DNA of 64,000 nucleotides from Candidatus Nomurabacteria bacterium (GCA_023267435.1 JAHFNH010000003.1:12717-76716), one strand, 5' to 3'; shown: positions 5,976 through 36,215, counted from the stretch's first letter. Numbers and translations are program-made. The notes: generated by a model from the sequence alone, not told the origin.

Positions 5976-8492
5976 TTACTGACCTTTACACTTTTGACAC
6001 TGAGCTCTAACCGCTTCAGGTACATATGAACATGATGGTACTGGAGCGAAAACACTACAATCCACAGTAGGAGCTGTAGTACCAGTCGGAGGGGTCGTCA
6101 TACCAGCTGGAGGAGTTGTTCCAGTTCCAGTTGGTGGTGTAAATCCGGTTGACATACCACCAGGAATACTGCCACTAGATGGACCATAATCTCCTGTTGG
6201 AATAGTAAATCCTGAAGGCATACCAGTTGGAATATCGCTTGGACTAAAACCTTGTGGAATATTCTCTGGTTTAAAACTGTCTGGTATTTTTGGTTTGAAA
6301 TTTGCCATACAAGCGGTAACTAAGGAAGTAACAACTTCCTGACCAGCCTGACCACTTTGAATTTTTGCCATCATCTCGTCATTTATTTTACTTTTAACAC
6401 AATCACGAATTTCTGCCGGTGCCTGATTTAATTTATCATCCATCATTTTTAAAGCCGAACTTTTTAGCACAGCTGCACAATCTTGCATAGCTTTGCCGAC
6501 TTCTGCTCCAGCTCCTGTATTGTCTCCTTTTTCATAAGCAGCTACTTTGTCTTTTCCAAGTTTATCTTCTAAACAAGCTCGAGCTTCAGGTGGCATCTGA
6601 CCAAGCCCTGTTTTAAATTTATCCATACCTTGTGTCTTCATAGCTTCAAAACATTTCTGGAAAATAGCTCCTTGTTCTGATGTTGGTGTAGCACCTGCTT
6701 TAATTTTATCCAATCCTCCGGCACCCAATTCCTTGTTTAGACAATCTATTGTTTCAGGTGTTGCCTGATCTAAAGAACTTTTCATTTGATCTAACAACTT
6801 GCCCATATTCTTTTCGAAACAATCTTTTATCTTTGCTCCCATTTCTGGTCCAGGCATAAATTTACCACCCTCAATATCACCAATAACTCCTTGTCCAAAA
6901 TTATCTTTCAAACATTGAAGCACTTCTGGTGGAGATTGTTTCAATCCCGCTTTTAACATATTTACGCCGTCTTGCATTTGTTTCAATTTATCAGCTGGAA
7001 TGATATCGTGCTCTTTCGCGAATTGGAAACAAGATTCCTGATTAGCTGTATCATTACAAAATGCTGCACATGTATCTTTTGACTTACATCCGCCAGGACC
7101 CTTGCCTCCAACCTTTTTAGCCATAGCAGCATCTTCAGGACTAATGAGTCCGGCCTTCTCAGCGAAAGTTAAACATTCAGTGGTGTTGCTATCATTATTA
7201 CAATATTTCTGACACTCATCTTTTGTTTTACATCCGCCTGGTGATTGTCCAGAATTTATCAGTGGTAAAACTTTTCGAGCCAGTGCGGCATCTTCAGCAC
7301 TGACAAAACCTGCTTTCTCAGCAAAACCTAAACACTCCGTTGCATTAGCAGAAACCGCGCAATAACTAGAACAAGAATCTTTATCTTTACAACCTCCTGG
7401 CATTGTCGCACCAGCTTTCAAAGCTGAAGCTACTTGTTTCGCCTCTTTTAAAGCCCCAGCTGGAATAAGGTCGTGTTTTTCAGCAAAAGTTAGACATGAA
7501 TCTATATTTTTCAAATCACTACAAAAAGCCTCACAAGAAGCTTTATCTTTACAACTACCAGGACCTTCACCTTTTAATACATCAGAAAACTTTCTTGATT
7601 GATCAGCTTGTTCTTTTGTAACTAAACCAGTTTTTTCTCCGTAAGAAATACAAGCCATCATATTTTCTTGTTTCGTACAGAAAGATTGACAATCTGCTTC
7701 ACTTTTACAACTACCAAGTTCGGCTATGGGAAATTTCGTAACTGGTTTTTCAGTCTTGCTTAAATGACCGACGGGACCATAAGTACCATCAATAACTACA
7801 CCATCAGCAGTAAAACTATAAACTCTACCCCAAAGATTTAGTTTATTGTCTTTCGGATTAATTGTTTTATATCCAAAAGTTATTACAGCTCCTGAACCTT
7901 CATTTAAACCAGTCACTGACCAATTAGTACTAGACGAATTGTATTGGACAGTATATGTCTCTCCTCCTTTGAGTGTACCCATTGGATCACTCGCGCCTAT
8001 CCAACCAGAATCATCAAAACTCGTTGTATCAAAAATTACATAAAATGTATTACCTCCATAAATATAATCTGCCCACGCATTAGAAACTGGTATGTCTTTA
8101 GGTGCAAAAATTTCTACACCGGAAGAAGTCCAACCTTGCTTTATAGCATCAGCAGTTAAAGTAAGAATATTGGTATTACCAGCATAATCAGCAACATAAA
8201 ATTCCTGACCGCCAGAAATATTAGCGGTAACCTTATAAGTTCCCTGACCGCCTGAAATAAGAACCTTGAAACCTTTTCCGTCTGGATTTAAAGCAAAACG
8301 ATTTTTACCCACAGACATAGCTGAAGGATGACTAATAGCCTTACCAGTTTCACAGTCAGTATATGTCCAAAACAAACCAGAAGAACAACCGCGCTCGATT
8401 TTTATATCAGCTGCAGAAACATTTTTTGAAACAATAAAGATACTTAGAACCAAAATTAGGAAAACAAAAATATTTTTTTTCATTATATTCAT
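5976..8492 (-). CDS. large secreted protein of 838 aa with a cleavable signal peptide, an N-terminal beta-rich domain, 5 tandem 4-Cys repeats, 4 tandem 2-Cys repeats and a Pro/Thr/Gly-rich Cys-capped tail
   Basis: Signal peptide MNIMKKNIFVFLILVLSIFIVSKNVSAA. Repeats G(S/G)CK.KD.C..(F/Y)C.......C..FAE K.. at aa 259-505. Repeats P(P/A)E...C(L/V)...C at aa 519-735. A periodic DNA repeat of about 150 bp is visible. Confidence 0.85.
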   Translation of the reverse strand: MNIMKKNIFVFLILVLSIFIVSKNVSAADIKIERGCSSGLFWTYTDCETGKAISHPSAMSVGKNRFALNPDGKGFKVLISGGQGTYKVTANISGGQEFYVADYAGNTNILTLTADAIKQGWTSSGVEIFAPKDIPVSNAWADYIYGGNTFYVIFDTTSFDDSGWIGASDPMGTLKGGETYTVQYNSSSTNWSVTGLNEGSGAVITFGYKTINPKDNKLNLWGRVYSFTADGVVIDGTYGPVGHLSKTEKPVTKFPIAELGSCKSEADCQSFCTKQENMMACISYGEKTGLVTKEQADQSRKFSDVLKGEGPGSCKDKASCEAFCSDLKNIDSCLTFAEKHDLIPAGALKEAKQVASALKAGATMPGGCKDKDSCSSYCAVSANATECLGFAEKAGFVSAEDAALARKVLPLINSGQSPGGCKTKDECQKYCNNDSNTTECLTFAEKAGLISPEDAAMAKKVGGKGPGGCKSKDTCAAFCNDTANQESCFQFAKEHDIIPADKLKQMQDGVNMLKAGLKQSPPEVLQCLKDNFGQGVIGDIEGGKFMPGPEMGAKIKDCFEKNMGKLLDQMKSSLDQATPETIDCLNKELGAGGLDKIKAGATPTSEQGAIFQKCFEAMKTQGMDKFKTGLGQMPPEARACLEDKLGKDKVAAYEKGDNTGAGAEVGKAMQDCAAVLKSSALKMMDDKLNQAPAEIRDCVKSKINDEMMAKIQSGQAGQEVVTSLVTACMANFKPKIPDSFKPENIPQGFSPSDIPTGMPSGFTIPTGDYGPSSGSIPGGMSTGFTPPTGTGTTPPAGMTTPPTGTTAPTVDCSVFAPVPSCSYVPEAVRAQCQKCKGQ

Positions 8493-12667: not shown

Positions 12668-12703
12668 TTTTTAAAGTGAGTATTTTGTGAGAGAAATTAT
12701 TTT

Positions 12704-13243
12704 CTATTGAACTGCATTTACAGTTGCTTTTGCATCTGTTTTTGTACCAATTACCTTAGTATCTAATTTCTTATTCACCTTTTTAGCTACATGTACAACC
12801 TCAACTTTTTTAGTAACCATTTTTACATTTTTAGCTGTCATAATATTTGTCGTCTTATCAAGATCTCCAGAAATAATAACTTTTTGTCCGACAATTAAAT
12901 CAGATGGCACGGCAACTGCCCCATCTTTCGTGTATACAGTTGAAGTATCTGTTTTAACTTCTACCGAAGTAACTATTTTTGTTTTTATATTTTTTATATC
13001 CACTGTAAAACCTGAAGTGTCTACAGCAGAAATAACTCCTACAATATTATTATCCTTTACACTTTTAATACCTTTTTCATTTTTGTTAACTTTTTCAATT
13101 TTTCCAGCTTTATGCTGTTTCTGGAAAGTTGGTTGTGTATCTTTAATACCTAAATCCTGTGGAGTTGCGGCAAATACTGCAGTACCTCCGACTAATAACG
13201 AAAATGCGAGTGCGCCTGTTGCGATATGTTTTTTATATTTCAT
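12704..13243 (-). CDS. secreted protein with a conserved beta-rich domain, paralogous to the CDSs at 30571-31008 and 34692-35213
   Basis: Signal peptide MKYKKHIATGALAFSLLVGGTAVFAA. The C-terminal region DLIVGQKVIISGDLDKTTNIMTAKNVKM aligns with DLVVGKQVSVTGTANPDGSLTAQSVQI. Confidence 0.6.
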   Translation of the reverse strand: MKYKKHIATGALAFSLLVGGTAVFAATPQDLGIKDTQPTFQKQHKAGKIEKVNKNEKGIKSVKDNNIVGVISAVDTSGFTVDIKNIKTKIVTSVEVKTDTSTVYTKDGAVAVPSDLIVGQKVIISGDLDKTTNIMTAKNVKMVTKKVEVVHVAKKVNKKLDTKVIGTKTDAKATVNAVQ

Positions 13244-13370
13244 AATTTTTTTAATAAATTAATAATTTCCGCCAGGGGGCGGATCAGCCTGCTGGCTGAA
13301 ATAAGCTAATAAATTTATACACCTTGACCTTAAGTATATATGAATATATTACATTCTATGGATGAAGTTA

Positions 13371-14399
13371 TCATGAAGAGATTGGCAGTGAGATAATCAC
13401 ATTTGTACCCTTATTTTCATGGCTTTTTATGGAGATAGTGCCTTTATGGTTTTCAATAATTTTCTTGGAAAGGGTCAGCCCTAAGCCCGCGCCATCTGTG
13501 TTTCGCGAAGCATCACCTCGAAAAAAAGGATCAAAAATCTTTTCAATAATTTCTTTTGAAATACCATAACCAGTATCGCTGATAGTAAGCACATATTTAT
13601 GTGAAACTATCTTGTCTGATATTGATATCGTTCCATTGGGTTCCGTGTATTTAATAGCATTGTCTAAAATATTATAGAATACGCGACCGAGATCAATTTT
13701 ATTTCCAAAGATATTTGCTAATGATTCCAAATTTGTTTCGATCTTTATTTCTTTCACTTGAGCTAAATTCTTATTTTTTTCCACAATAGATCTCACCAAT
13801 TCACCGATAGAAATAAGTTCGTATTCCATCTGTACTGTTGTGCCATATTTTGATATATCCAGTAAACTATTACTGAGTTTTGAAAATTCCCTCATTTCAT
13901 CCAAAGTATTTTCTAAAGTTTTCTTGGCCGAAACAAGATCTAGTTTTTTATTATTCAAATTCACCTCAAGACCGGAGATAACGACCGCAATAGGAGTGCG
14001 AAGTTCATGGGAAGCATCAGCGATAAATCTCTTTTGCTTTTGCATGTTCAACTTGATCGGCTCAAGTGTTTTATAAGTAAGCAAGAATCCTAATATAATA
14101 ATAAAGAAAATTAAAAGAGCGTCTATAGTCAAAAAACGATTCAGTAAAATATCTTGAGCTCTATCTACTATCACTTGAGCAATGTCAGGATCAGGTATAT
14201 TTTCAAAAATTGATGTGGAAAGATTTGAAAGAATCGTATTGTAAAGCATAATACTTGAACCGCCCAAAATAACTATTGCCGTAATGGAATAATAAAAAGT
14301 GAGTCTAAGTCGCGCTACGAAAAATTCGTCAATCTTATTATTAACCTTCCATTTTGTAACCGACTCCACGAATTGTTTGTATGATTTTTGCATTGTCAT
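13371..14399 (-). CDS. two-component sensor histidine kinase
   Basis: Two TM helices, the H-box ADASHELRTPIAV, and HATPase motifs NAIKYTEPNG...DTGYGIS...GLGLTL. Confidence 0.85.
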   Translation of the reverse strand: MTMQKSYKQFVESVTKWKVNNKIDEFFVARLRLTFYYSITAIVILGGSSIMLYNTILSNLSTSIFENIPDPDIAQVIVDRAQDILLNRFLTIDALLIFFIIILGFLLTYKTLEPIKLNMQKQKRFIADASHELRTPIAVVISGLEVNLNNKKLDLVSAKKTLENTLDEMREFSKLSNSLLDISKYGTTVQMEYELISIGELVRSIVEKNKNLAQVKEIKIETNLESLANIFGNKIDLGRVFYNILDNAIKYTEPNGTISISDKIVSHKYVLTISDTGYGISKEIIEKIFDPFFRGDASRNTDGAGLGLTLSKKIIENHKGTISIKSHENKGTNVIISLPISS

Positions 14400-15009
14400 G
14401 AATTTTTTTTCTTAGATTTTTTATATGCACATCGACAGTGTTACTAAAAGACGAATCTGCAAAGTCCCATGCATGAGAATAAAGTTCATCTCGAGTAACA
14501 ACTTTGTTTAAGTGATGCATCAGATATTCGAGCACCATAAATTCTTTCAAGGTGAGAAAAACTAGTTTACCTTTATAAGTTACCGTCCTACTTATCGTAT
14601 TTATACTGATATCCCCAGAAGTAAGTATATCAGGAAAAGAATGTTTTGGACGTCGCAAAAGCGCATGAACGCGGGCCAGAAGTTCTTTAAAAGCGAAAGG
14701 TTTCGCTAAATAATCATCAGCACCGGCATCTAGACCAATAACTTTGTCATCTGTAGTATCCAATGCCGTAAGCATCAGCACGGGAATCACAATACCATTC
14801 TCCCGCCAATGAATACAAATAGAAACTCCGTCTTTCCCGGGAAGCATTCTGTCTAAAATCACTAAGTCATATTCATTATGATTTACCATAATTCTGCGCT
14901 CAGCAGCAATTCCCTCTTCGATCACATCGACAGCATAACCTTCCTGTACAAGGCCTTGTTTCAGATTTTCTGCCAATTTTTGATTGTCCTCAACCACTAA
15001 TATTTTCAT
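14341..15009 (-). CDS. OmpR-family response regulator
   Basis: MKILVVEDNQKLAENL...DLVILDRMLPGKDG is the receiver domain. A winged-helix C-terminus follows (TIRGVGYKM). It overlaps the HK ORF by 59 nt. Confidence 0.88.
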   Translation of the reverse strand: MKILVVEDNQKLAENLKQGLVQEGYAVDVIEEGIAAERRIMVNHNEYDLVILDRMLPGKDGVSICIHWRENGIVIPVLMLTALDTTDDKVIGLDAGADDYLAKPFAFKELLARVHALLRRPKHSFPDILTSGDISINTISRTVTYKGKLVFLTLKEFMVLEYLMHHLNKVVTRDELYSHAWDFADSSFSNTVDVHIKNLRKKIHDNAKIIQTIRGVGYKMEG

Positions 15010-15067
15010 ATTTATATGATACCACTTTTAAAGTGAAATCTTCATGAAGTATGCTACAATCTAATTT

Positions 15068-16075
15068 GTGTCACATAAAACTCAAGGTAAAAGATCGGTC
15101 ATAGCAGCGCTTTTGGGCAATATCTTTGTCACTTTTATTAAAACAGTGGTTGCCTTTTTTTCCGGTTCCGCCAGTATGTTCGCCGAAAGCGTGCACAGTT
15201 TCGCCGATACTCTAAACCAATCTCTTCTATTGGTCGGCTTAAAAAGATCTAAGAAACCAGCTGATAGTGATCGAGGTTATGGTTATGGTATTGAAAGATT
15301 TTTTTGGTCTTTGATATCAGCCTGCGGAATTCTTTTTATTGGTGCCGGTATCACTGTCTACCATTCAACAATTTCTTTAATCAATTACGACAGCGGTATA
15401 GTTTCTAGTTTTAGTTATTTTATTATTCTTGTTTTATGTATTTCTTTTGTTATCGAAGGAATAACTTTGTTCATTGCTTTCAAAGAATTAAAAGGCAGTG
15501 AAAAATTTTCAAAGAAAATTTTTCTTGACGCTGACCCGGTCACTCTCGCTGTCGTTTACGAAGATGGGGCTGCTGTCCTGGGTGTCTTCGTCGCCCTCAT
15601 TGCGCAGTTTTTAATGTATTTCACAGGCAATGGTATTTACGACTCGATCGCTGGAATAATCATCGGTCTCATTCTTGGATTTTTGGCAGTTCTTCTGATA
15701 AGGAAAAATCACTTGTATATCATCGGTAAATCTTTAGATCCAAAAATAGTGGAAGAAATAACAGAACTTTTATTGGAAGATCCTTGCATCGAAAATATTT
15801 CTGAATTTAAATCCGTCGCTGTCGACATCAATCAATACAGAATATACACCACCGTCGAATGGAATGGTTCCCCTCTTTATGAAGAGATCTACAAAGCCGG
15901 AGATTTGAGAGAAGAATTCGACGAGATAAAAAATGACTTCAGTGAATTCACAAAATTGATGTTTAAGATGACTGACCGTATTCCCCGCCTCGTCGGAAAT
16001 CATATAGACAAGATAGAAAAAAAAATTAAAGAAAAATTCCCTCAGATTTTATACGTAGATATAGAAATAAATTAA
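15068..16075 (+). CDS. cation diffusion facilitator (CDF) family metal efflux transporter
   Basis: GTG start. SASMFAESVHSFADTLNQ is the CDF TM2 HxxxD-like motif. Six TM helices plus a cytoplasmic C-terminal domain. Confidence 0.8.
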   Translation: MSHKTQGKRSVIAALLGNIFVTFIKTVVAFFSGSASMFAESVHSFADTLNQSLLLVGLKRSKKPADSDRGYGYGIERFFWSLISACGILFIGAGITVYHSTISLINYDSGIVSSFSYFIILVLCISFVIEGITLFIAFKELKGSEKFSKKIFLDADPVTLAVVYEDGAAVLGVFVALIAQFLMYFTGNGIYDSIAGIIIGLILGFLAVLLIRKNHLYIIGKSLDPKIVEEITELLLEDPCIENISEFKSVAVDINQYRIYTTVEWNGSPLYEEIYKAGDLREEFDEIKNDFSEFTKLMFKMTDRIPRLVGNHIDKIEKKIKEKFPQILYVDIEIN

Positions 16076-25999: not shown

Positions 26000-27616
26000 A
26001 TGCACACTCAAATAGACACAATTATAAACACATGCTATGCAACAACTAACACATCAAGACAAATAGCTTTTTATTCACATTTAATTCCAGTAATATTTTC
26101 ACTAGCACTAGCTATTCTAGTGTTCGTTAAATCTAAACGTATCTTACTTTCAAAAATTTTCCTTGCCTTTGTTTCGATGTTCTCACTTTGGCTTATAGGT
26201 GACTTGATTCTTTGGACACAAAATAATTATTTTCTTCAGTATGCCTCGTGGGCACCACTTGATTATATTGAAATAGTATTTTATGTACTCGGACTTTATT
26301 TTGCAATTTCTTTCGTTAAAGGATCCACAATTCCAAAACTTTCTAAAATTTTTCTATTTATTCTTACTCTTCCTCCACTTTTTATTACCTTATCAAAACA
26401 ATCAGTTAATGGCTTTAATTACCCTGTTTGCGAAGCGTTCAACAATAACTTTTTAGGTAACTATAAACTTGCAGTAGAAGGTTTTATTCTAATAATTCTT
26501 CTAATTTATATAGTAATTCCTTTTATAAAAAAACTATCACCTGAAAAGAAAAAAGCTGATTTAATTGTACTTGGTTCCATGTTTTTATTCCTTTCAATAT
26601 TTGGAGTAACAGAATATTTTGCTTCAATCACAGGAAATTATGAGATGAACTTATATAGTTTATTTGTAATACCTATTTTTCTTTTTGCTATGATCTACTC
26701 CGTTTTTGATTTGGATATTTTTAATTTCAAAATCCTTGGAACACATTATTTAGTTGTGGGATTCTTAGTGTTAACAGGTATGCAAGTATTCTTTATCAAA
26801 GGTGGAGTTGATGGGTTACTTACTGGAATAACAGTATTATTTGCAGCAGGGCTTAGTGTTATTCTATTTAGAAATCTGAAAAAAGAATCTGACCAACGTA
26901 TACTTATCGAACACTTAGCCGATCAACGAGAAAGTTTCATTCACTTCTTGAGTCACGAGGTCAAGGGAATCTTGGGAAAAAATAAAAACATGTTTGCTAT
27001 GATATTGGAAAAAGATCCAAACACGACAGCAGAACAAATAGACTCTTTCATTAAGAGATCTTCTGTCGACACTAATGGAGCTATCGATATGGTTGAAAAT
27101 ATTCTTCGCTCTAATGATTTTAAAAATGGAAAAGTTTCTATGGATATGAAACCTTTCGACATGAAAGCATCCGTACTGGACGCATTAAATAGTTTGAAAT
27201 TTGATATTGAAACAAAAGGACTCACTGTAAAAACAACTATAGATGAAAAACAAGATTACACAGTTTTGGGAGATAAAGAAAATATAACCAAACACGTCAT
27301 ACGCAATCTTATAGACAACGCTATCCGCTACACTCCAAAAGGTGATATTACTATTTTTCTATCAAAAAATGGAAATAAGGTTTTGTTCTCCGTAAAAGAT
27401 ACTGGCGTGGGTATTACTCCAGAAGATATGTCAAAACTATTCACTGAAGGCGGACGCGGTAAAGACTCAATCAAGGTTAATGTGCACAGTACTGGTTACG
27501 GGTTATTCTTCGCTAAAGGGATGGTAGAAGCTCACAATGGAAGAGTTTGGGCTGAATCAGAAGGTGCAGGTAAAGGCACCACTTTCCTACTAGAGTTGCC
27601 AGCATATTCGGCATAG
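26000..27616 (+). CDS. sensor histidine kinase with an N-terminal 7-TM sensing domain (orphan; no adjacent response regulator)
   Basis: About 280 aa of polytopic membrane domain, then H-box FLSHEVKGIL and HATPase motifs NLIDNAIRYTPKG...DTGVGI...GYGLFFAKG. Confidence 0.8.
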   Translation: MHTQIDTIINTCYATTNTSRQIAFYSHLIPVIFSLALAILVFVKSKRILLSKIFLAFVSMFSLWLIGDLILWTQNNYFLQYASWAPLDYIEIVFYVLGLYFAISFVKGSTIPKLSKIFLFILTLPPLFITLSKQSVNGFNYPVCEAFNNNFLGNYKLAVEGFILIILLIYIVIPFIKKLSPEKKKADLIVLGSMFLFLSIFGVTEYFASITGNYEMNLYSLFVIPIFLFAMIYSVFDLDIFNFKILGTHYLVVGFLVLTGMQVFFIKGGVDGLLTGITVLFAAGLSVILFRNLKKESDQRILIEHLADQRESFIHFLSHEVKGILGKNKNMFAMILEKDPNTTAEQIDSFIKRSSVDTNGAIDMVENILRSNDFKNGKVSMDMKPFDMKASVLDALNSLKFDIETKGLTVKTTIDEKQDYTVLGDKENITKHVIRNLIDNAIRYTPKGDITIFLSKNGNKVLFSVKDTGVGITPEDMSKLFTEGGRGKDSIKVNVHSTGYGLFFAKGMVEAHNGRVWAESEGAGKGTTFLLELPAYSA

Positions 27617-27732
27617 ATATATTGTTTCAAATTTAAACTAAGATAAAATTTTTAGAGCCCTAAAGGACTTCATTTAGTAAAATGACCTACTGGGTCGATT
27701 TTCTAAAGTTTAGTAAAACTAAGTAAATCGGG

Positions 27733-27803
27733 AGCCGAGAGTGGGAATCGGACCCACGTTCCTACTTTACGAAAGTAGTGTTCTACCACTGAACTATATC
27801 GGC
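27733..27803 (-). tRNA. tRNA-Thr (anticodon CGU)
   Basis: GCCGAUA-UA-GUUC-AGUGGUA-GAAC-A-CUACU-UUCGUAA-AGUAG-GAAC-GUGGG-UCCGAUU-CCCAC-UCUCGGC. One acceptor-stem mismatch. Confidence 0.7.
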
Positions 27804-27878
27804 TTATTCTTAATTCTCAAACAAAGAAAAGTATACACCAATTAAATAATTGTTGCATTTAAACTATTAATTAAAAAA

Positions 27879-28490
27879 TTATTCTTTATCGGCAAATACT
27901 ACAAGTCTATAAGGACGGCCTTTCTTCACACTATTCCAAATCCCCTCACAAGTAACAAGATTCAGGTGTGCCTTTCCATCGGTTGAACCGAATACATCTG
28001 AAGCATCTGCGTTGGCATCATATTTTCTACTTTCTCGTACAACAAAAGAAATAGTTGCACCCTTATCATCTTCGACGATAATTTTGTCTCCATTTTTTAA
28101 TTTATATAAATTATCGAATACCGCTGGAATGCTGTTTTTCCAACCGAAGTGCCCGGCGATAACAGCACTGCCATTATCGCCAGGATGTGGTCCCAGGTCG
28201 AACCAAGCGACATTATCTGGACCCTTTGGCACTTCCATCGCCCCATCAGAAGTAAGACCCACATCTTCAACAACAGCATCGACATTAATATTCGGAATCT
28301 TTAGACGCACTGGCAACCCAAAATTATCTTTCCCCTGTCCCAAAGGAATAGTGGTTTTTACAACAAGCGGAATCAAACTAGTATGAGTTGAATCTTTAAA
28401 GAAAAGAAATAAAAATAAACCCAAGAAAATAAAGAATCCCAGAAAAATAATTATTAATATTCTTTTTGATAAATTTTTTGATAAATTCAT
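27879..28490 (-). CDS. sortase (class F-like transpeptidase)
   Basis: N-terminal TM anchor. Catalytic His in AVIAGHFGW and the TLXTC motif HLNLVTCEG. Confidence 0.8.
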   Translation of the reverse strand: MNLSKNLSKRILIIIFLGFFIFLGLFLFLFFKDSTHTSLIPLVVKTTIPLGQGKDNFGLPVRLKIPNINVDAVVEDVGLTSDGAMEVPKGPDNVAWFDLGPHPGDNGSAVIAGHFGWKNSIPAVFDNLYKLKNGDKIIVEDDKGATISFVVRESRKYDANADASDVFGSTDGKAHLNLVTCEGIWNSVKKGRPYRLVVFADKE

Positions 28491-28499
28491 ATATAACCT

Positions 28500-28540
28500 A
28501 AAGAGTCAGCCCAAGATTGGTCTGACTCTTTTTACTTTAA
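28500..28540. terminator. hairpin terminator-like element
   Basis: AAAGAGTCAGcccaagattggtCTGACTCTTTTTACTTT, lying between the adhesin and sortase genes. Confidence 0.45.
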
Positions 28541-28582
28541 AAACAGTGTAAAAATATTCGTTAACCTATCTTAATAGAGAAA

Positions 28583-30259
28583 CTATATTTTATGCTTTCT
28601 TAGAACCATAACAAATGAAATAGAAACTAATGCGAGCAAACCAAACAATAATAATATAACAACATTCCATGGAGCAGGAGGAAGTCCTGTCTTAGGAAGA
28701 CTAGGAGCGGCCACCACCACTGTAGCAAGAGAATAATCGATCGCAGTAAGACCATTTGCACTTCCCTCAGCAGTTCCAGTATTCGTAGTTGTCTGTGTAA
28801 GATTTGTTAAACAAGTGAAAGTCCATGTTTCATTACTTTCAAGTAAATCGTTTTTATTAAGATCTCCTGGGTGTCCTACGACACGGCCTGGTAGACCAGT
28901 ACATTTGTCATCAGTGATACTAACATTACTTAATGGCGCAGTACCAGGATTGGTTACGGTATATGTGTAAGTAACTGCTCCACCATTTGCAGGAAGAACA
29001 AAAACGTTTGGCTTTTTAACTACATGGATTAGTGGTGGTATTATTGGAACTCCGACAACGACAGTTGCATTTGCAGTATCGATTGCGGTAAAACCATTAG
29101 CATCACCAGTTGCAGTGACAGTATTGGTAGTGGTTTGGGAGAGTGTTGTGGTACAAGTGTATGTCCAAGTTTCATTGATATCAAGTTTGGAATCATTATT
29201 TGAATCACCTGAAATGAAACCTACAGTAGAACATGCATTGTCAGAAACAATAACATTACTCATTGGAACTGTTCCGATATTCTTAACTGTATAAGTATAA
29301 GTAACTGGTCCAGGTCCTAGAGGTAATGCTAATGGAGTTGGAACTTTTAAAACACTGATCAAAGGTGGAACAGATGCTGTTGTAAGAGGACCACCACCTT
29401 GGGGAGCTGTTGAGGGAGGGGTTGGAGGGGTCACATATACAGGAATTGAAACAGTATGACTACCAGCGCCGTCTAGTGTAACAGACGCCGTATTTGAAAA
29501 TGCTCTTCCGTGTAATGTTGCACCAGCTAATAAAGCAACGCTTGTTTGATCTAAAATATTTCCTTCAAAAACAGATGTTGTTTCAAGTGTAGTTGCACCA
29601 CCGACAACCCAAAAAATATTGGAAGCCTGTGCACCACCACTTAAAAGAATGCTTTTAGCAGAACTGATATCAAGAGTTCCTGGTACTCTAAATATCCATA
29701 CATCACTTGCTGTTCCTGTAAGATGAATATCGCCTGTAATAATTACATTACCAGGACCAGAAAATGAATAAACTCCAGGAGCGATTGTTAAACCAGCAAG
29801 ATCCCAAGTTCCAGATCCGGTTCCAATATTTGTAGCATCAAATGGTCGAACAGTATTATTGTTAGCATCAGTATAAGCTGCTCCTGCAGCACCGACAGCA
29901 TTATCTACAAAAGTTTTATTGGCTGGTACAGTATCACCCGGCATAGCACAAGCAGCAAAACCGGTAACATTATATCCGGAATCAACTTCGTATATTTTTC
30001 CACCGCCAGTCATTGATGTACATGTCAAACCAGCAATGTTTGAACCTGCAAGTGGACTCACTCCAACATTTCCAGTAATTATAGTTGATGCGGGAGTAGC
30101 ATCAGTTACACCTGCATATGACAAAATTGAGAAACTATCTGCTCCTCCAAGATTAACAGTTGCCGGGCTAGCAAAAGCGTGCGCTTTAGTAGAGCCAGTG
30201 AAATTAAATACAAGAGAAAACAAAACAACTAAGAAAGAAAACTTTTTAAGTATTTTCAT
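28583..30259 (-). CDS. LPXTG-anchored surface protein with an N-terminal ice-binding-like (DUF3494) beta-helix domain and two DUF11-like repeats
   Basis: Signal peptide. AQASNIFWVVGGATTLETTSVFEGNILDQTSVALLAGATLHGRAFS...VTLDG matches the DUF3494 consensus. Two TYTYTV(K/T)N.GT.P.SNV...ETWT(Y/F)TC repeats. C-terminal LPKTG at 28685-28699, followed by a hydrophobic helix and RKHKI. Confidence 0.85.
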   Translation of the reverse strand: MKILKKFSFLVVLFSLVFNFTGSTKAHAFASPATVNLGGADSFSILSYAGVTDATPASTIITGNVGVSPLAGSNIAGLTCTSMTGGGKIYEVDSGYNVTGFAACAMPGDTVPANKTFVDNAVGAAGAAYTDANNNTVRPFDATNIGTGSGTWDLAGLTIAPGVYSFSGPGNVIITGDIHLTGTASDVWIFRVPGTLDISSAKSILLSGGAQASNIFWVVGGATTLETTSVFEGNILDQTSVALLAGATLHGRAFSNTASVTLDGAGSHTVSIPVYVTPPTPPSTAPQGGGPLTTASVPPLISVLKVPTPLALPLGPGPVTYTYTVKNIGTVPMSNVIVSDNACSTVGFISGDSNNDSKLDINETWTYTCTTTLSQTTTNTVTATGDANGFTAIDTANATVVVGVPIIPPLIHVVKKPNVFVLPANGGAVTYTYTVTNPGTAPLSNVSITDDKCTGLPGRVVGHPGDLNKNDLLESNETWTFTCLTNLTQTTTNTGTAEGSANGLTAIDYSLATVVVAAPSLPKTGLPPAPWNVVILLLFGLLALVSISFVMVLRKHKI

Positions 30260-30371
30260 ATTTTACTATTTATTTTTAAAAACTATTATAATAGCTATAT
30301 TATAACCTTTTTAAAGATAACTTTGTTATATATATATATCCTGTGGATAAGTCATAAATAATAAAAATTGA

Positions 30372-30443
30372 GCCGTTGATCGGGATTGAACCGATGACCT
30401 CGATATTACCAATATCGTGCTCTACCAACTGAGCTACAACGGC
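30372..30443 (-). tRNA. tRNA-Thr (anticodon GGU)
   Basis: GCCGUUG-UA-GCUC-AGUUGGUA-GAGC-A-CGAUA-UUGGUAA-UAUCG-AGGUC-AUCGG-UUCAAUC-CCGAU-CAACGGC. Confidence 0.8.
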
Positions 30444-30508
30444 AGAATAGTAGCTAAAATTATAAAAATAATATAACTACTATTTAATTTGGTGATATTT
30501 ACCAAAAC

Positions 30509-30520
30509 AGCTACAACGGC
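30509..30520 (-). repeat. exact 12-nt duplicate of the tRNA-Thr(GGU) 5' end (GCCGUUGUAGCU), 66 nt upstream of the tRNA
   Basis: agctacaacggc occurs at 30432-30443 (within the tRNA) and at 30509-30520. Confidence 0.55.
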
Positions 30521-30570: not shown

Positions 30571-31008
30571 TTATTGTGTTGAAGTGGATGCAGGAGCGGG
30601 ATTGGTTGGCATTGCTGGTCTGATTTGCACTGACTGAGCGGTTAAACTGCCATCTGGATTTGCTGTACCGGTAACGCTTACTTGTTTACCAACAACTAAA
30701 TCTGTCGATACTCCACTGACATTTTTTTCAATGGGAGTCTTGTCTGTATAAAAAATTATTTTAGAACTTCCGTCTCTAAGTTTTAGAGTAATACTTTGAG
30801 CGTCTTTAGAGAGAATTTCACCCACAGTCATTCCTCCAAAATTTCCACCATTCCTCATTCCACCAGCAGTACTTCTACCATTCAAACCAAAAGCTTGACT
30901 TCCCTGACCTCTAGCAGGTATTTGACTCTTACCATAAACCATACCTATATAAAACACTCCTACCAAAACTAAAATACCTATGACAACTAAACCAATTTTT
31001 TTATTCAT
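30571..31008 (-). CDS. small membrane-anchored protein with a Gly/Met-rich segment and a beta-rich domain (paralog of 34692-35213 and 12704-13243)
   Basis: One TM (IGLVVIGILVLVGVFYIGMVY), GGMRNGGNFGGM, then ...DLVVGKQVSVTGTANPDGSLTAQSVQIRPAMP. Confidence 0.65.
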   Translation of the reverse strand: MNKKIGLVVIGILVLVGVFYIGMVYGKSQIPARGQGSQAFGLNGRSTAGGMRNGGNFGGMTVGEILSKDAQSITLKLRDGSSKIIFYTDKTPIEKNVSGVSTDLVVGKQVSVTGTANPDGSLTAQSVQIRPAMPTNPAPASTSTQ

Positions 31009-31077
31009 ATGATTTTTAATAATTTTACTAATCTAATAATTTCGCCTCTTCGGCGAATCCGTCGATGAGACGGAAAT

Positions 31078-32301
31078 TTACTCATACCTAAGGGCATCGA
31101 TTGGATTTAAATTAGCCGCCCGACGCGCAGGATAATATCCAAAAACAATACCGATTCCAGCCGAAACCGCAAAAGCTAAAAGAACAGTGGGTAAAGAAAC
31201 TTGCGTTTGAATAATTCCAGAATATGTTACCGCCAGAGATATCAGCCACCCCAAAATAACACCTATCACACCACTGATAAACGTCAACATAACAGCCTCA
31301 AGTAAAAATTGAGTATTAATGTCTTTCTTTTTTGCACCGATTGCTTTACGTAAACCGATTTCTCTTGTACGTTCCGTAACGGTAGTCAGCATCATATTCA
31401 TAATTCCAATACCGCCAACCAAAAGAGAAATTCCAGCTACTGCTGCTAAAAAAAGCGTAAATGTACCCGTGACTGATGAAGCCGTAGCAATAATGTCTGC
31501 CTGATTTAATATATTAAAATCAGCTTTAGTAGGATCAGAAATATTGTGACGAATCAATAATAAATTTGTCACATCAGATTGTACTTGCGCTGACACATCA
31601 GAGCTTGTTGCCGAGATATCAATCTCGCTTAAATATTTATTTCCCGTAAGATATCTTTGAGCTGTGGTATAAGGAATAAAAATTGTATCATCACTATTAC
31701 TAAAACCAGAACCTCCTTTTGCTTTAGTTATACCAATAACAACATATTCACTTCCTGAAATACGAATCGTTTGACCAATAACACCTGTAACACCCACACC
31801 AAACAGATCATCCCTGGCAGTGGGTCCCAACACAGCAACTTTTGAACCACTTGTAATATTTTGAGTTGATAAAAAATCACCTTCATCAATAGATACATTT
31901 CGGACTGTAGAGTACGCTGGTTCTGTACCTATAATACTAGTATTTGTATTAGTGCCGGTACCGACAACTTGCTTACGCGAAGTTACTTCACGGACCACTC
32001 CAACCACATCAGAAATTTGAGACTCAATCGCATCAGCATCTTCTACTGTTAATGTCTGTGCTCCTCCACGTCCGGCACTTGGTCCACCGAAAGTGCGTGC
32101 AGCTCCAGGCATAACCATAACTAAGTTTGCACCAATAGACTGAATGCTTGAAGATATAGAATTCTGCGCACCTTGACCAATCGCAGTCATAGCAATAACA
32201 GAAGCTATACCGATTACAATTCCAAGCATCGTAAGTCCTGTACGTACTTTGTTGGCAAATAAAGCGCTAGATGTTTCACTTATGATATCTGATATTTTCA
32301 T
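31078..32301 (-). CDS. ABC transporter permease, MacB/FtsX-like family
   Basis: 407 aa. N-terminal TM, a periplasmic domain of about 200 aa, and three C-terminal TM helices. The start overlaps the ATPase stop by 4 nt. Confidence 0.85.
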   Translation of the reverse strand: MKISDIISETSSALFANKVRTGLTMLGIVIGIASVIAMTAIGQGAQNSISSSIQSIGANLVMVMPGAARTFGGPSAGRGGAQTLTVEDADAIESQISDVVGVVREVTSRKQVVGTGTNTNTSIIGTEPAYSTVRNVSIDEGDFLSTQNITSGSKVAVLGPTARDDLFGVGVTGVIGQTIRISGSEYVVIGITKAKGGSGFSNSDDTIFIPYTTAQRYLTGNKYLSEIDISATSSDVSAQVQSDVTNLLLIRHNISDPTKADFNILNQADIIATASSVTGTFTLFLAAVAGISLLVGGIGIMNMMLTTVTERTREIGLRKAIGAKKKDINTQFLLEAVMLTFISGVIGVILGWLISLAVTYSGIIQTQVSLPTVLLAFAVSAGIGIVFGYYPARRAANLNPIDALRYE

Positions 32302-33005
32302 ATGTTTTTTATAACTCTTTTTAAATGGCCATTCTCATTTTCAGTAAGTACGCCATCGCGAATAAATAAAATCCTATCGGCATGTTCAGCAATATATTGT
32401 TCATGAGTGATAAGTACGATTGTTCTGCCATGTTCTTTGTTTAATTTTTGAAAAGTGCCCAAAACTATTTCTCCTGTTTTTGAATCGAGGTTACCTGTAG
32501 GCTCGTCAGCTAAAATTAGTGACGGATTATTTACCAAAGCTCGTGCAATAGCAACACGTTGAATCTGTCCACCAGAAAGCTGATTTGAAAGATGATAGAA
32601 ATGCGATTCATTCAGACCCGCAGCAAAAAGGGCTTCTTTGGCGCGTTTTTCTCTTTCTTTTGTTTCTATTCCATCATAAACAAGCGGTAACATTACATTT
32701 CTGAGGACTGTAGTACGTGGTAATAAGTTGAATGATTGAAACACGAAACCAATTTTATCTTTGCGAATATCTGCTAGTTCATCATCTGAAAGAGTTGAAA
32801 CATCCTTGTCATCTAGAAGATACGTGCCACTCGTTGGATTATCCAATGCACCTAAAATATGCATAAGAGTCGACTTACCAGATCCAGAAGGTCCCATAAT
32901 AGCAACAAATTCTCCATCCTTTATAGTAAAGCTCACACCTTTAAGGGCCTGAAACTCAATGTCTCCAGATTTATATGTTTTTGTAATATCTTTTATTTCA
33001 ATCAT
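32298..33005 (-). CDS. ABC transporter ATP-binding protein (MacB/LolD-type)
   Basis: Walker [10 protein letters not shown], signature LSGGQIQR, Walker [12 protein letters not shown]. Confidence 0.9.
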
Positions 33006-33009
33006 AACT

Positions 33010-34686
33010 TTAATTACCTGGAATTCTTACTGCCCCACCTCCTCTGTTTCCACCAGCTCCACCGAGCAAACTAGATGTTGCTGTTTTTGCAGCCGTTGGT
33101 AATATTGTTCTTGTCACAATTTCATCTCCTTCTTTTATTCCAGAAACTATTTCAGTCTCTGAATTATTTGAAAGTCCTGTTGTTACAGTAATTTTATTCG
33201 GAATAATTGTCGAAATAGAACCTGGCAATCCATCTGTTGGTGCAGGTAGTGGTGCATCAAACATCTCAACATAACTTGAACCACCTTGTCTTTTCACTGC
33301 ACTGTTTGGTACTACTAAGACATCTTGTTTTACATTTGTGATAATAGAAGCTGAGACACTCATTCCGGGTTTTACCGTACTATCTTGATTATCAAAACTA
33401 ATTTTTACATTATAAGTCACAACTCCTTGCGTTACTGTACCTACAGTATCAATTTGTGCCACTTCTCCTGCAATTGAAAAATTCGGAATTGCATCAAAAG
33501 TAAGAGTAGCTTTTTGACCCAATTTTATCTTAGCTACATCTACCTCATTCAATGAGATAGTAGCCAATTGTTTAGTGGTAATGATCGTCCCTAAAATTGT
33601 TCCAGAACTTGCAGTTTCACCGACATTCACAGGAACACTTGCAACGGTACCTTCAAAAGGGGCAACGATGTTGTAATAAGATAGATTATCCCTGGCATCC
33701 TGTAAAGCATTTTCTTTTTGCTTTACTGTGAGTTGCGCTGTTTGTATATCAAGCACATCTGCACCGGATTGTAATTTACTCAACGCTTCTGTATTCTGAA
33801 TGATAGTTCTATCTGAATCTGTATTTACTTGAGCTTGATTTTGTAAAGTAAGCTGGTATGAATTATAACTTGCGCCGTAACTGCTTGCCTGAGTATTTGG
33901 TATTGCCACTGTCCACTCATTTATTCCACTGGAAGCATAATTGTTCGGAAACTGAATATATAGACCAAAAGTTCCTAAAGCAACAGGGGTAGTTGTATTT
34001 ACTGTACCGCTTCCATTTTCAAGGCCAGAAACTGAGAGATATGCTCCACTGCCACTATTATGAACAAGAATATCGTAACTTCCCTCCGTTGTTCCGGTGT
34101 AAGTTCCGCTAATTGTAGGAGCGGTGAAATTTGCGCTACTAGTTGAAGTAGATTTCGGAACAGCAACTATTCCGCTATTCAAAAAACTGCTGTGCGCATT
34201 TTTAACAACAAGATCTTGATTTTTCTTTGCATCTTGCGCAGCCGCAATAGCATTTTGATACTGAATAACAGATAATTTATCCGCTGGCTCTTGTAATTTT
34301 GCTAAAGAAAGATTGGCTGCATCAAGATTAATTTGCGCATCTCTAAGAGTTTTCTGAGCATCTTTACTGTCGAGAGAAAAAAGAAGTTTACCACTTCCTG
34401 CCTGATCACCTGGTTTGACATAAATATGAGTAATCGTACCAGAGACATTAGGTTTTAAATCAATCTGACTTGAAACGGAAACTTGTCCACTGCCGGTAAT
34501 GGAAGATACAATAGTTCCTTTAGTAACAGCTGACAAAACATATCGCGTATCCCCTGCGGTGCTAGTAATTTTTCCATAGCCCCAATACCCAACCCCAACA
34601 ACAATCAAAAGTATAACAATACTACTTATCAAGTGGTCAAGAGCATAATCTTTAATTTTTTGTAAATATGACATTATTTTTTCCAT
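33010..34686 (-). CDS. HlyD/MacA-family periplasmic adaptor (membrane fusion protein), long form with a Ser/Thr/Gly-rich insertion
   Basis: N-terminal TM, coiled-coil region (AQKTLRDAQINLDAANLSLAKLQ...), beta-barrel/lipoyl-like regions, and a Gly-rich C-terminal tail. Confidence 0.8.
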   Translation of the reverse strand: MEKIMSYLQKIKDYALDHLISSIVILLIVVGVGYWGYGKITSTAGDTRYVLSAVTKGTIVSSITGSGQVSVSSQIDLKPNVSGTITHIYVKPGDQAGSGKLLFSLDSKDAQKTLRDAQINLDAANLSLAKLQEPADKLSVIQYQNAIAAAQDAKKNQDLVVKNAHSSFLNSGIVAVPKSTSTSSANFTAPTISGTYTGTTEGSYDILVHNSGSGAYLSVSGLENGSGTVNTTTPVALGTFGLYIQFPNNYASSGINEWTVAIPNTQASSYGASYNSYQLTLQNQAQVNTDSDRTIIQNTEALSKLQSGADVLDIQTAQLTVKQKENALQDARDNLSYYNIVAPFEGTVASVPVNVGETASSGTILGTIITTKQLATISLNEVDVAKIKLGQKATLTFDAIPNFSIAGEVAQIDTVGTVTQGVVTYNVKISFDNQDSTVKPGMSVSASIITNVKQDVLVVPNSAVKRQGGSSYVEMFDAPLPAPTDGLPGSISTIIPNKITVTTGLSNNSETEIVSGIKEGDEIVTRTILPTAAKTATSSLLGGAGGNRGGGAVRIPGN

Positions 34687-34691
34687 AACTA

Positions 34692-35213
34692 TTATTGATT
34701 AGAACTATTAATTTGAGTTGGAACGGTCGAGGTAGTAGAAGGAAAAATAGGAGGAAAAGGCATAATTCTTATTAACTTTGCTTCAATCTGCCCTTGTGAA
34801 TTTGGAGAACCGACAACAACTACATTTTCATCAACCTTTAGATCGTTAATGGAAATACTATCTCTGACATCTATTATTTTTGTATCATTACTTGTAATTA
34901 CCACTTTTTCAGTATTATCCCTATCTTGAACTATAATATTTGGCAATTCAATTTTTATAATTTTACCTATAGCTCCATGGGCATTAGGAAAATTTCCCAT
35001 CATGCCACCAAAATAACCACGTCCATTCATCATACCAAAATTACGCCCATAATTCTCCCCCCAATCACGACCAAATGAAGCTTTATGAAAACCTACATAT
35101 ACTCCGGCTTGAAAGATAAGTGAAACAACAACAAGAATTCCCACAATCAACAAAACTCCAAAAACTTTTTTTGATTCTAAAACTTTTCTAATATTTTCTT
35201 TAATTTCTTTCAT
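34692..35213 (-). CDS. small membrane-anchored protein with a Gly/Met-rich segment (paralog of 30571-31008)
   Basis: One TM, FGMMNGRGYFGGMMGNF, then ...VVVVGSPNSQGQIEAKLIRIMP. Confidence 0.65.
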   Translation of the reverse strand: MKEIKENIRKVLESKKVFGVLLIVGILVVVSLIFQAGVYVGFHKASFGRDWGENYGRNFGMMNGRGYFGGMMGNFPNAHGAIGKIIKIELPNIIVQDRDNTEKVVITSNDTKIIDVRDSISINDLKVDENVVVVGSPNSQGQIEAKLIRIMPFPPIFPSTTSTVPTQINSSNQ

Positions 35214-35223
35214 AAAAATAAAA

Positions 35224-35625
35224 CTATGCTATTAATAATTTATGACGAGTTCGAATATTTCGCGCCATATAACGTAAGGATAATACAAATAAAAAAACTA
35301 AGGATAAAGACAAAATTAAATTTGTCATAGGTAATGATTCAATCATAGATAAAATGATTTCTTTCCAAAAATAAACAGCCTTGCTATTAGAAAACATTAG
35401 GGATAAATAATCATAAAAGCCAGAACTATAAAAATCAGAAACTAACTGCCTAATAAGCACAAAAAAGCCTAAAAGAGAAAATATTCCTGTAACAGAATAA
35501 ACCCATATTTTAATGTTATTATTTCTTTTTTCCTTAATAGAGATAGCGTTGAAAATATTCTCCGAAAGACTGCTCTCAGGACAAAACACGGCCTTTTGAA
35601 AAATTTTAATTAAATTCTTATCCAT
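35224..35625 (-). CDS. small two-TM membrane protein, putative anti-sigma factor
   Basis: 133 aa, lying 17 nt downstream of the ECF sigma gene. The call rests on position plus topology only. Confidence 0.4.
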   Translation of the reverse strand: MDKNLIKIFQKAVFCPESSLSENIFNAISIKEKRNNNIKIWVYSVTGIFSLLGFFVLIRQLVSDFYSSGFYDYLSLMFSNSKAVYFWKEIILSMIESLPMTNLILSLSLVFLFVLSLRYMARNIRTRHKLLIA

Positions 35626-35642
35626 ATCTCTATATACGTAGA

Positions 35643-36215
35643 CTAATTTGATTTTGGTGCAATCATCTTTCTTATTTGCAAAATAGCTCGAAGATGATGG
35701 CTTTTTATTGTGTTTAATGGTCTCTCAAGAACCTGAGATATTTCATCAAAAGTCATTTCTTCTTGATAATGAAGAATTAAAACTGTTTGAAATTGTTCCG
35801 GTAATTTTTCTAATAATGAATTCAATAAATCTACATCTTGTAATTTCTGCAGTATCTCATCGGGTAAAATTGCCTCATCCTTTATGGTTTCTGAGAAATT
35901 ATTTTCTTCATTATCCAAACTAGAAAACGGAATGGAGTTTTTTCTGCGCAAGAAATCAATAACCGTATTTCTAGCTATAGTAAAAATCCAGGTTTTAAAA
36001 CTGGATTTGTTTTGATTAAACTTTTCCAAACTTTTCCAAACTTTAACAAAAATTTCTTGAGTAATATCATCAGCTTCGTTATTTCCGACAAAACGCCGAA
36101 CAAAATTATAAATTTGTGGAGTATATTTATCAATAAGCTCCTTCAATGCAGTGTCATCGCCAGAGACATATAAACTAATTAATTCTGAATCTTTATCCAT
36201 TGTAATTTTAGGCAA
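35643..36215 (-). CDS. ECF-type RNA polymerase sigma-70 family factor
   Basis: Region 2 (DDITQEIFVKVWKSLEKF...FKTWIFTIARNTVIDFLRR) and region 4 (MTFDEISQVLERPLNTIKSHHLRA). Confidence 0.85.
   Translation of the reverse strand: MPKITMDKDSELISLYVSGDDTALKELIDKYTPQIYNFVRRFVGNNEADDITQEIFVKVWKSLEKFNQNKSSFKTWIFTIARNTVIDFLRRKNSIPFSSLDNEENNFSETIKDEAILPDEILQKLQDVDLLNSLLEKLPEQFQTVLILHYQEEMTFDEISQVLERPLNTIKSHHLRAILQIRKMIAPKSN

Follow-up and report, generated by a model that had tools for sequence, protein, structure and literature searches.

The DNA analysed here is a stretch of 64,000 nucleotides (nt), hereafter the window, from a Candidatus Nomurabacteria bacterium (GCA_023267435.1, JAHFNH010000003.1:12717-76716), with a GC content of 34.9%. 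Towards its middle, two tRNA-Thr genes of the minus strand, with anticodons CGU and GGU, enclose two open reading frames (ORFs) of the same strand (Table 1). Followed in the direction of transcription, a gene for a 558-residue protein with an LPKTG sorting signal, hereafter the substrate, precedes an intercistronic hairpin and then a gene for a 203-residue sortase. A first-pass annotation of the window had described this pair as a complete surface-display unit, in a geometry typical of cassettes landed in tRNA clusters; the surface-display unit is borne out by gene calls, domains, sorting signal and sortase class. ARAGORN and Rfam agree on the two same-strand tRNA-Thr genes around the pair, with Rfam spans that coincide with those first annotated. 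The two tRNAs are different isoacceptors and probably core genes, and the CGU gene turns its 5′ end, not its 3′ end, towards the sortase gene. The nearest relatives of the MacB-type operon that adjoins the pair all belong to the Patescibacteria, or candidate phyla radiation (Candidatus Paceibacterota, Nomurabacteria and similar lineages).

Table 1 Features of the substrate–sortase pair and its flanks, in window coordinates
Feature	Coordinates	Strand	Evidence
tRNA-Thr (anticodon CGU), downstream flank of the pair	27730..27804	-	ARAGORN; Rfam tRNA, 63 bits (27733-27803)
Sortase, 203 residues, class F-like, N-terminal membrane anchor; H114, C181 (in LVTC), R195	27879..28490	-	Pfam PF04203; NCBIfam NF033748
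Hairpin AAAGAGTCAGACC...GGGCTGACTCTTT, located between substrate stop and sortase start, terminator/attenuator-like	28500..28531	-	Inverted repeat; retained in centroid fold
Sortase substrate, 558 residues, whole gene including stop codon	28583..30259	-	ORF; Pfam/NCBIfam matches; homologs; AlphaFold model
Cell-wall sorting signal: LPKTG (521-525), LPPAPWN, hydrophobic helix, RKHKI tail	28586..28699	-	Direct sequence reading
CLIPPER_2 (DUF7507) Ig-like domain 2, residues ~409-516; K415/D450/N493, C453/C483	28712..29035	-	Pfam; invariant residues
CLIPPER_2 (DUF7507) Ig-like domain 1, residues ~299-402; K305/D340/N379, C343/C369	29054..29365	-	Pfam; invariant residues
DUF3494/IBP-1 fold domain, residues ~29-265, beta-helix with long flanking alpha-helix	29465..30175	-	PF11999; PDB 9lhn; Foldseek
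Sec-type signal peptide, residues 1-28, ending ...TKAHA before FASPA	30176..30259	-	Translation reading; putative cleavage site
Promoter-like site upstream of the substrate gene: TTAAAA, 18-nt spacer, TATAAT	30285..30314	-	Consensus scan alone; weak evidence
tRNA-Thr (anticodon GGU), 3′ end towards the substrate gene	30370..30443	-	ARAGORN; Rfam tRNA, 69.9 bits (30371-30443)

The substrate carries a complete tripartite LPXTG signal, with LPKTG at residues 521-525, the hydrophobic stretch LPPAPWNVVILLLFGLLALVSISFVMVL and RKHKI at the C terminus, in agreement with the motif, transmembrane helix and basic tail first noted. An AlphaFold model built from 47 homologs, with a mean predicted local distance difference test score of 84, starts with a helix and a low-confidence linker at the N terminus. 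Next come a beta-helix flanked by a long alpha-helix, a pair of beta-sandwiches and, at the C terminus, another helix. A search with the substrate gave 1539 significant matches among 8000 candidates scored. Most of the homologs listed share the architecture at 510–560 residues and approximately 50% identity, and some are named ‘ice-binding family protein’. An LPxTG-like motif is present in 110 of the 120 listed homologs, LPNTG being the dominant form (54 times) and LPKTG occurring 13 times, and a basic tail accompanies all 110 of these motifs. The sorting signal extends beyond the pentapeptide among these homologs, with x-P-P in approximately 60% and PW[ND] about 8 residues later in about one-third. 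The exact substrate and sortase proteins of the window are already present in public collections; a cluster look-up of the two returned no names.

The sortase matches the whole Pfam peptidase C60 profile (PF04203) over residues 63-202, with 87.6 bits against a cut-off of 26.6. Its best class in NCBIfam is class F (NF033748, 119.8 bits), and the other sortase models there (the generic family and classes C, E, D and GN) all give at most 30 bits. These scores uphold the class F-like assignment that had been made from the active-site motif HLNLVTCEG, which is found as AHLNLVTCEG; an alignment of 36 homologs shows no variation at H114, at the C181 within this motif or at R195. As befits class F, the adjoining gene supplies an LPXTG-type substrate, with LPKTG in the window and LPNTG, LPRTG or FPKTG in 11 other contexts. 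A search with the sortase gave 2054 matches of 55–66% identity, mostly from Patescibacteria, many of them named ‘class F sortase’ by NCBI.

Besides the window, the loci compared include L001–L080, which carry the MacB operon, and L082, L085 and L093–L101, which provide the 11 other sortase contexts. In 12 of 12 independent contexts, the window counted, the gene directly upstream of the sortase gene is on the same strand and encodes a protein that has an LPXTG-type motif (LPNTG, LPKTG, LPRTG or FPKTG; the motif in L100 is not followed by the usual hydrophobic stretch), and in 9 of the 12 this upstream protein has an Ice_binding domain. The two-gene unit is real and complete, common in Patescibacteria and ordinary for the lineage. 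Beyond generic kinase and ABC domains and a distant PheS gene, no neighbours are common to the window and the 11 other sortase loci.

Our reading, with a probability of roughly 0.8, is that substrate and sortase form a resident surface-display operon of two genes in a Paceibacteria-like member of the Patescibacteria. The substrate would be exported by Sec, and its LPKTG signal would be cut by the adjoining membrane-anchored sortase through a thioacyl intermediate at Cys181, with His114 and Arg195 assisting. The cut protein would then be joined to a peptidoglycan precursor, and its DUF3494 beta-helix head would be held off the wall on a stalk of two CLIPPER_2 immunoglobulin (Ig)-like domains. 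The hairpin would end or attenuate most transcripts past the substrate gene, so that much more substrate than sortase would be made. Several findings weigh against this scheme. The sortase stays below the curated class F cut-off of 166 bits, and among solved structures the one nearest to it in sequence is a class C sortase (8t28, E 9e-7). No cell-wall-anchor family, such as Gram_pos_anchor, was found on the substrate in Pfam (E ≤ 0.01) or NCBIfam scans. The hairpin has a poor U-tract, and its stem ends just 9 nt before the sortase ATG in the window. As to the first of these points, six homologs of the sortase, five of them named class F by NCBI, likewise score 110–128 bits on NF033748. As these too fall below the cut-off, the window sortase is typical of a divergent class F branch in the Patescibacteria, and ‘class F-like’ is its accurate label given a score under 166 bits.

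Among known class F enzymes, the one that has been characterised is SrtF of Propionibacterium/Cutibacterium acnes, a housekeeping sortase with an LPXTG-type substrate (Girolamo et al. 2019, as cited in PMC8225981). The window sortase shares with class F the fold family, the His-Cys-Arg triad, the N-terminal membrane anchor and the LPXTG-type substrate. It differs in its sub-threshold profile score, in belonging to a Patescibacteria clade rather than to Actinobacteria, in being dedicated to one adjoining substrate and in the conserved intergenic hairpin that accompanies it. In L097, which holds the closest sortase relative among contigs of sufficient length for inspection (72% identity), a second and longer sortase gene of 257 residues comes next (4630-5403).

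The stalk matches DUF7507/CLIPPER_2 (PF24346) in two stretches with 59 bits, against a cut-off of 27, and DUF11 with 28 bits, so that the two DUF11-like repeats of the first reading hold, with CLIPPER_2 as the closer profile. Pfam has renamed DUF11 and DUF7507 as CLIPPER and CLIPPER_2, which are CnaA-like domains with Asp-catalysed intramolecular Lys-Asn isopeptide bonds, often together with a disulfide (PMC12617251). The triads K305/D340/N379 and K415/D450/N493, as well as the cysteine pairs C343/C369 and C453/C483, are invariant in 47 homologs. The triad spacing in both domains is that of the published CnaA-like isopeptide domains, for which the DUF7507 reference triad is Lys72/Asp112/Asn152 (PMC12617251). 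Both stalk domains are therefore probably locked by an intramolecular Lys-Asn isopeptide bond and one disulfide each, as judged from these residues. This layout, in which a signal peptide, an adhesive head, an isopeptide-type Ig stalk and a sorting signal follow one another, with conserved Lys/Asp/Asn triads and cysteine pairs in the stalk, is shared with fibrillar adhesins that have CLIPPER/CLIPPER_2 stalks (Costa et al. 2025, PMC12617251; Monzon et al. 2021, PMC8286594), for which Ice_binding is listed among the adhesive heads (PMC8286594). The protein of the window differs from these in its Patescibacteria host and in its very short stalk, with two domains in a total of 558 residues.

Isopeptide-type Ig domains are also typical of pilins, and some of the homologous substrates carry SpaA_2 domains (L082 and L098). 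Together with the class C enzyme 8t28 as best solved relative, this could be taken to mean that the sortase is a class C-like pilus polymerase and the substrate a pilin polymerised into a fibre, not an anchored monomer. We consider this very improbable. The NCBIfam class C model gives 28.6 bits against 119.8 for class F, no YPKN-type pilin motif is seen on reading the substrate sequence, and the unit has a single substrate gene and a single sortase. Each Ig domain has just one invariant first-strand lysine (K305 or K415), which occupies the position expected for the intramolecular bond. The pilin reading was dropped because of the missing YPKN motif and the low class C score, in favour of a wall-anchored monomer.

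The head scores 152.3 bits on the Ice_binding profile (PF11999; cut-off 28.7) over residues 45-264, so the DUF3494 similarity claimed for it was found on profile search. Its best solved sequence match is PDB 9lhn (E 5e-39). In the AlphaFold model, a helix at residues 115-134 packs alongside a strand array at 151-271, as expected of the DUF3494 fold with its right-handed beta-helix, and Foldseek gives target template modelling (TM) scores of 0.8–0.9 to solved DUF3494 ice-binding proteins (9lhr, 3wp9 and 4nu2), with FfIBP and a Colwellia protein among the proven ice binders at this level. DUF3494 is the fold of many proven ice-binding proteins. Of the architectures described so far, the one closest to that seen here is SfIBP_1 of Shewanella frigidimarina (PDB 6bg8). 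This protein, reportedly described by Vance et al. in 2018, is said to combine DUF3494 with tandem beta-sandwich domains and has been proposed as an ice adhesin. Both proteins have a DUF3494 head, Ig-like beta-sandwich spacers and an envelope anchor, and 6bg8 was recovered by sequence as well as by fold. They differ in that the window protein has its head at the N terminus, a C-terminal sortase signal as anchor in a monoderm-type cell, and a CLIPPER_2 stalk with isopeptide triads.

Given the strong likeness in sequence and fold, and the parallel with SfIBP_1 in head, beta-sandwich stalk and cell anchor, the head might be a true ice-binding module and the protein a wall-anchored ice adhesin or antifreeze. 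This we hold to be quite unlikely. The substrate reaches 154.5 bits on the NCBIfam equivalog IBP_CFB (NF045625), far from the cut-off of 400, and belongs to a very large family found in Patescibacteria metagenome-assembled genomes from many different samples and studies. In Pfam-based survey work on fibrillar adhesins, Ice_binding figures as just one of many adhesive heads (PMC8286594). The head would most likely be a generic adhesin, directed at a surface, host cell or particle, and not an antifreeze.

Between the stop codon of the substrate gene and the start of the sortase gene, the hairpin is conserved in 10 of the 12 contexts, the exceptions being L098, where the genes are 5 nt apart, and the atypical L100. 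In the other loci it takes the form AAGAGCCAGAC, loop, GTCTGGCTCTT, or variants of it. In an alignment of nine sequences, the 12-bp helix has 97.2% of its cells paired, and both partners vary in 7 of the 12 pairs. Not one shuffle out of 500 reached these values, and sliding the partners against each other dropped the pairing to 30–46%. A covariance search scored the sense strand at 42–57 bits and the antisense strand at 31–40 bits; this asymmetry, with the G-U pairs, fits a structure formed in RNA. An Rfam scan of 24-34 kb (E ≤ 1) matched only the two tRNAs, so the hairpin does not belong to a described family.

The most likely role suggested by this structure is that of a leaky terminator or attenuator that would limit read-through into the sortase gene. 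The poor U-tract and the 9 nt between stem and ATG mean that an effect on translation or messenger RNA (mRNA) stability, instead of termination, is also possible. In pilus and fimbrial operons, the balance between subunit and enzyme is set by intercistronic terminators or attenuators such as the one after papA. With these, the hairpin of the window shares a stable stem right after an abundant structural gene and before the gene of an assembly enzyme; it differs in its sequence conservation across a phylum-level radiation, its weak U-tract and its close proximity, in the window, to the sortase start codon. That conservation (AGAGYCAGAC...GTCTGRCTCT, between lineages with proteins just 50–60% identical) is unusually high for a terminator, and could instead speak for a DNA operator bound by a regulator, or for an RNase processing or stability site. 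The weak U-tract and the sensor kinases near the module in several loci would suit such a site. Compensatory changes and G-U pairs point to RNA pairing, not to a sequence-specific DNA site, the sense strand outscores the antisense, and the shape is that of the ordinary terminators of these genomes, which makes an operator or processing site improbable next to a terminator or attenuator.

No second copy of the hairpin was found in the 64-kb window, and a covariance model run over 1.48 Mb of Patescibacteria DNA gave nothing above 26 bits besides its own training sites; with a single window copy and no comparable site in that related DNA, a generic repeated element was dropped as an explanation. 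The weaker matches of the model elsewhere are canonical terminators with an A-tract, a GC stem and a U-tract. An integron attC site was also dropped, since the palindrome separates the two genes of the unit instead of marking the border of a cassette, and has no attC core motifs. In several of L093–L096 and L099, an extended -10-like TGnTATAAT box is found in the 10–30 nt past the hairpin (for example TGGTATAAT in L096 and TGTTATAAT in L099), and the sortase may thus also have a weak promoter of its own.

The first-pass annotation took the tRNA-flanked geometry for that of a landed cassette and named the comparison with related genomes as a check on it. The pair is not universal at this position, which would have marked it as core: it is absent there from 80 of 80 MacB-operon loci and from 7 of 7 loci with the kinase block of the other flank. 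The five-gene block that ends in the DUF5666 gene is found in approximately 80 Patescibacteria loci, none with the pair or a tRNA-Thr pair alongside, and the kinase block is conserved in 7 metagenome loci, none of which has the pair. The site differs from that of the window in all relatives found, of which the nearest have only 77–79% (MacB) and 45–56% (kinase) protein identity. An empty site was sought from both flanks, with MacB as the anchor in species-representative genomes and the kinase as the anchor in metagenomes. Both flanking blocks proved to be conserved elsewhere and never adjacent, and no homologous site, empty or occupied, was found.

Synteny in tblastx with L001, L002 and L005 (MacB 77–79% identical) runs from ~36.2 to 30.6 kb and ends with the DUF5666 gene, so that the break falls just before tRNA-Thr(GGU). 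At the junction, L001 has proBAC, and L005 has genes for a 217-residue protein and an 856-residue DUF11 surface protein, with a pseudouridine synthase next in both. The neighbourhood around the module is different in every genome sampled. The module has a tRNA gene no more than 500 nt away in 5 of the 11 other loci (Gly in L093, Arg in L094, Lys in L095, Pro and Gly in L098, Arg in L100), compared with 2.3% of equal-size windows in 1.29 Mb of background loci (binomial p = 2.6e-6; 1e-3 with an 8% background; 11 loci). The background frequency is put at 2–5%. In 6 of 6 tRNA-adjacent cases, tRNA-Thr(GGU) of the window counted, the module faces the 3′ end of the tRNA.

Fragments of tRNA genes lie near the module in both the window and L095. 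In the window, a 21-nt relic at 30500-30520 on the minus strand agrees with the 5′ end of tRNA-Thr(GGU) at 18 positions and includes the exact 12-mer GCCGTTGTAGCT at 30509-30520. It is located 77 nt upstream of the tRNA-Thr(GGU) gene, on the DUF5666/MacB side and outside the pair, has a chance expectation of 0.05 and looks like a rearrangement scar. In L095, 20 nt of the tRNA-Lys(UUU) 3′ end, CCA included, are repeated exactly and in direct orientation (6681-6700 and 6881-6900). The repeat copy, 180 nt downstream of the tRNA-Lys gene and 66 nt from the sortase stop codon, resembles the scar of an attachment (att) site, although the repeat does not enclose the module.

These observations would fit a pair that reached the 3′ end of tRNA-Thr(GGU) as cargo of an integrative element, now decayed, or as a relocatable module. 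Like genomic islands at tRNA 3′ ends, the pair lies immediately 3′ of a tRNA gene, at a junction of variable content with tRNA scars nearby; unlike them, it has no integrase, no bracketing direct repeats and no deviation in composition, and the cargo is merely 2.5 kb. In Pfam scans of the genes at 15-41 kb, none came up as an integrase, transposase or recombinase. No 11-mer or longer word of either tRNA recurs around the pair besides the 5′ relic, which is on the far side of the tRNA, and the repeat in L095 leaves the module out. The composition of the two genes is host-like when measured against the 64 genes of the window (GC z = +0.8 and +1.4; third-codon-position GC z = +0.35 and -1.5), and profiles of the substrate and sortase had no match in the viral contigs scanned. 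The tRNA partners vary in identity and strand, the sample of 11 loci is small, and the relatives are too distant to separate an insertion from ordinary loss of synteny. We regard insertion or mobility as unlikely. Core genes surround the pair (CTP synthase, FtsEX, RF2, the kinase and the ECF-sigma/MacAB operon), and our reading is that of a resident operon in a tRNA-proximal, rearrangement-prone region, not of an identifiable mobile element. Of the cassette idea, the variable, tRNA-proximal location is supported; the insertion itself, for which no integrase, att repeats or compositional anomaly were found, is unlikely.

A broader conjecture joins these threads. Substrate, hairpin and sortase may make up a self-contained surface-display module that brings no integrase itself and has been repeatedly relocated or exchanged, throughout the Patescibacteria, at recombination hot spots near tRNA 3′ ends, and the head may be the main host or particle adhesin of these episymbiotic ultra-small bacteria. 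We offer it as speculative and rather improbable as a whole.

The attachment of Patescibacteria to hosts and surfaces is poorly understood, and published work on it is centred on type IV pili (for example, PMC11623550). The present locus typifies an alternative that is very widespread in these bacteria, a protein predicted to be sortase-anchored, with a head of ice-binding fold on an isopeptide-type stalk. A sortase with an adjoining LPXTG substrate is textbook knowledge, both protein families are named in databases and the architecture fits the published fibrillar-adhesin scheme. In the literature search, no paper was found that mentions both DUF3494 and LPXTG, and matches on Patescibacteria sortase and ice-binding did not address this system. 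Three points are modestly new, and each needs a larger census: the conserved hairpin that covaries between the two genes, the sorting signal with its partly conserved extension, and the statistical link of the module to tRNA 3′ ends. The hairpin and the excess of tRNA genes beside the module may be small regularities worth such a census.

Further out, the genes at 15-41 kb encode, by Pfam, a cation efflux protein, a methyltransferase, CTP synthase, FtsEX, RF2, EamA and a sensor kinase, as well as an ECF sigma factor, the HlyD/ABC/MacB/DUF5666 operon, NQR/ApbE-type proteins and an MFS transporter. The segment at 30571-36215 on the minus strand holds, in order, the ECF sigma factor, a 133-residue protein, a 173-residue protein, an HlyD-like protein, an ABC ATPase, a MacB-like permease and the DUF5666 protein. 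The five genes from the 173-residue protein to DUF5666 are those that recur in the approximately 80 Patescibacteria loci (L001–L080), and the ECF sigma factor and 133-residue protein are also common to the nearest relatives of the window. The 133-residue ORF (35224-35625, minus strand), beside the ECF sigma factor, ends in LPMTN, a hydrophobic stretch and RTRHKLLIA and so superficially resembles a sorting signal; this C terminus is more likely the membrane helix of an anti-sigma factor. We looked through the 64-kb window for a second sortase, a second DUF3494 gene or another convincing LPXTG protein and found none.

Sensor kinase or PAS-domain genes stand beside the module in 4 of the 12 contexts (window, 26000-27616; L096, 2897-4387; L099, 1-569; L101, 1-252), perhaps by chance or through a regulatory link. 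In L005, the 856-residue DUF11 surface protein (12697-15267) occupies the position of the module and has a C-terminal membrane helix without an LPXTG motif. In L082 (5167-10616 and 14944-15603), the sortase lies between two Ice_binding proteins (SpaA_2; TIG and PG_binding), with a Fic gene upstream and an IS200-type Y1 transposase 6 kb downstream. Four-helix genes of the 23S_rRNA_IVP/bAvd type, a type that includes accessory genes of diversity-generating retroelements, are located near the module in L098 (4756-5166) and L101 (5573-5962).

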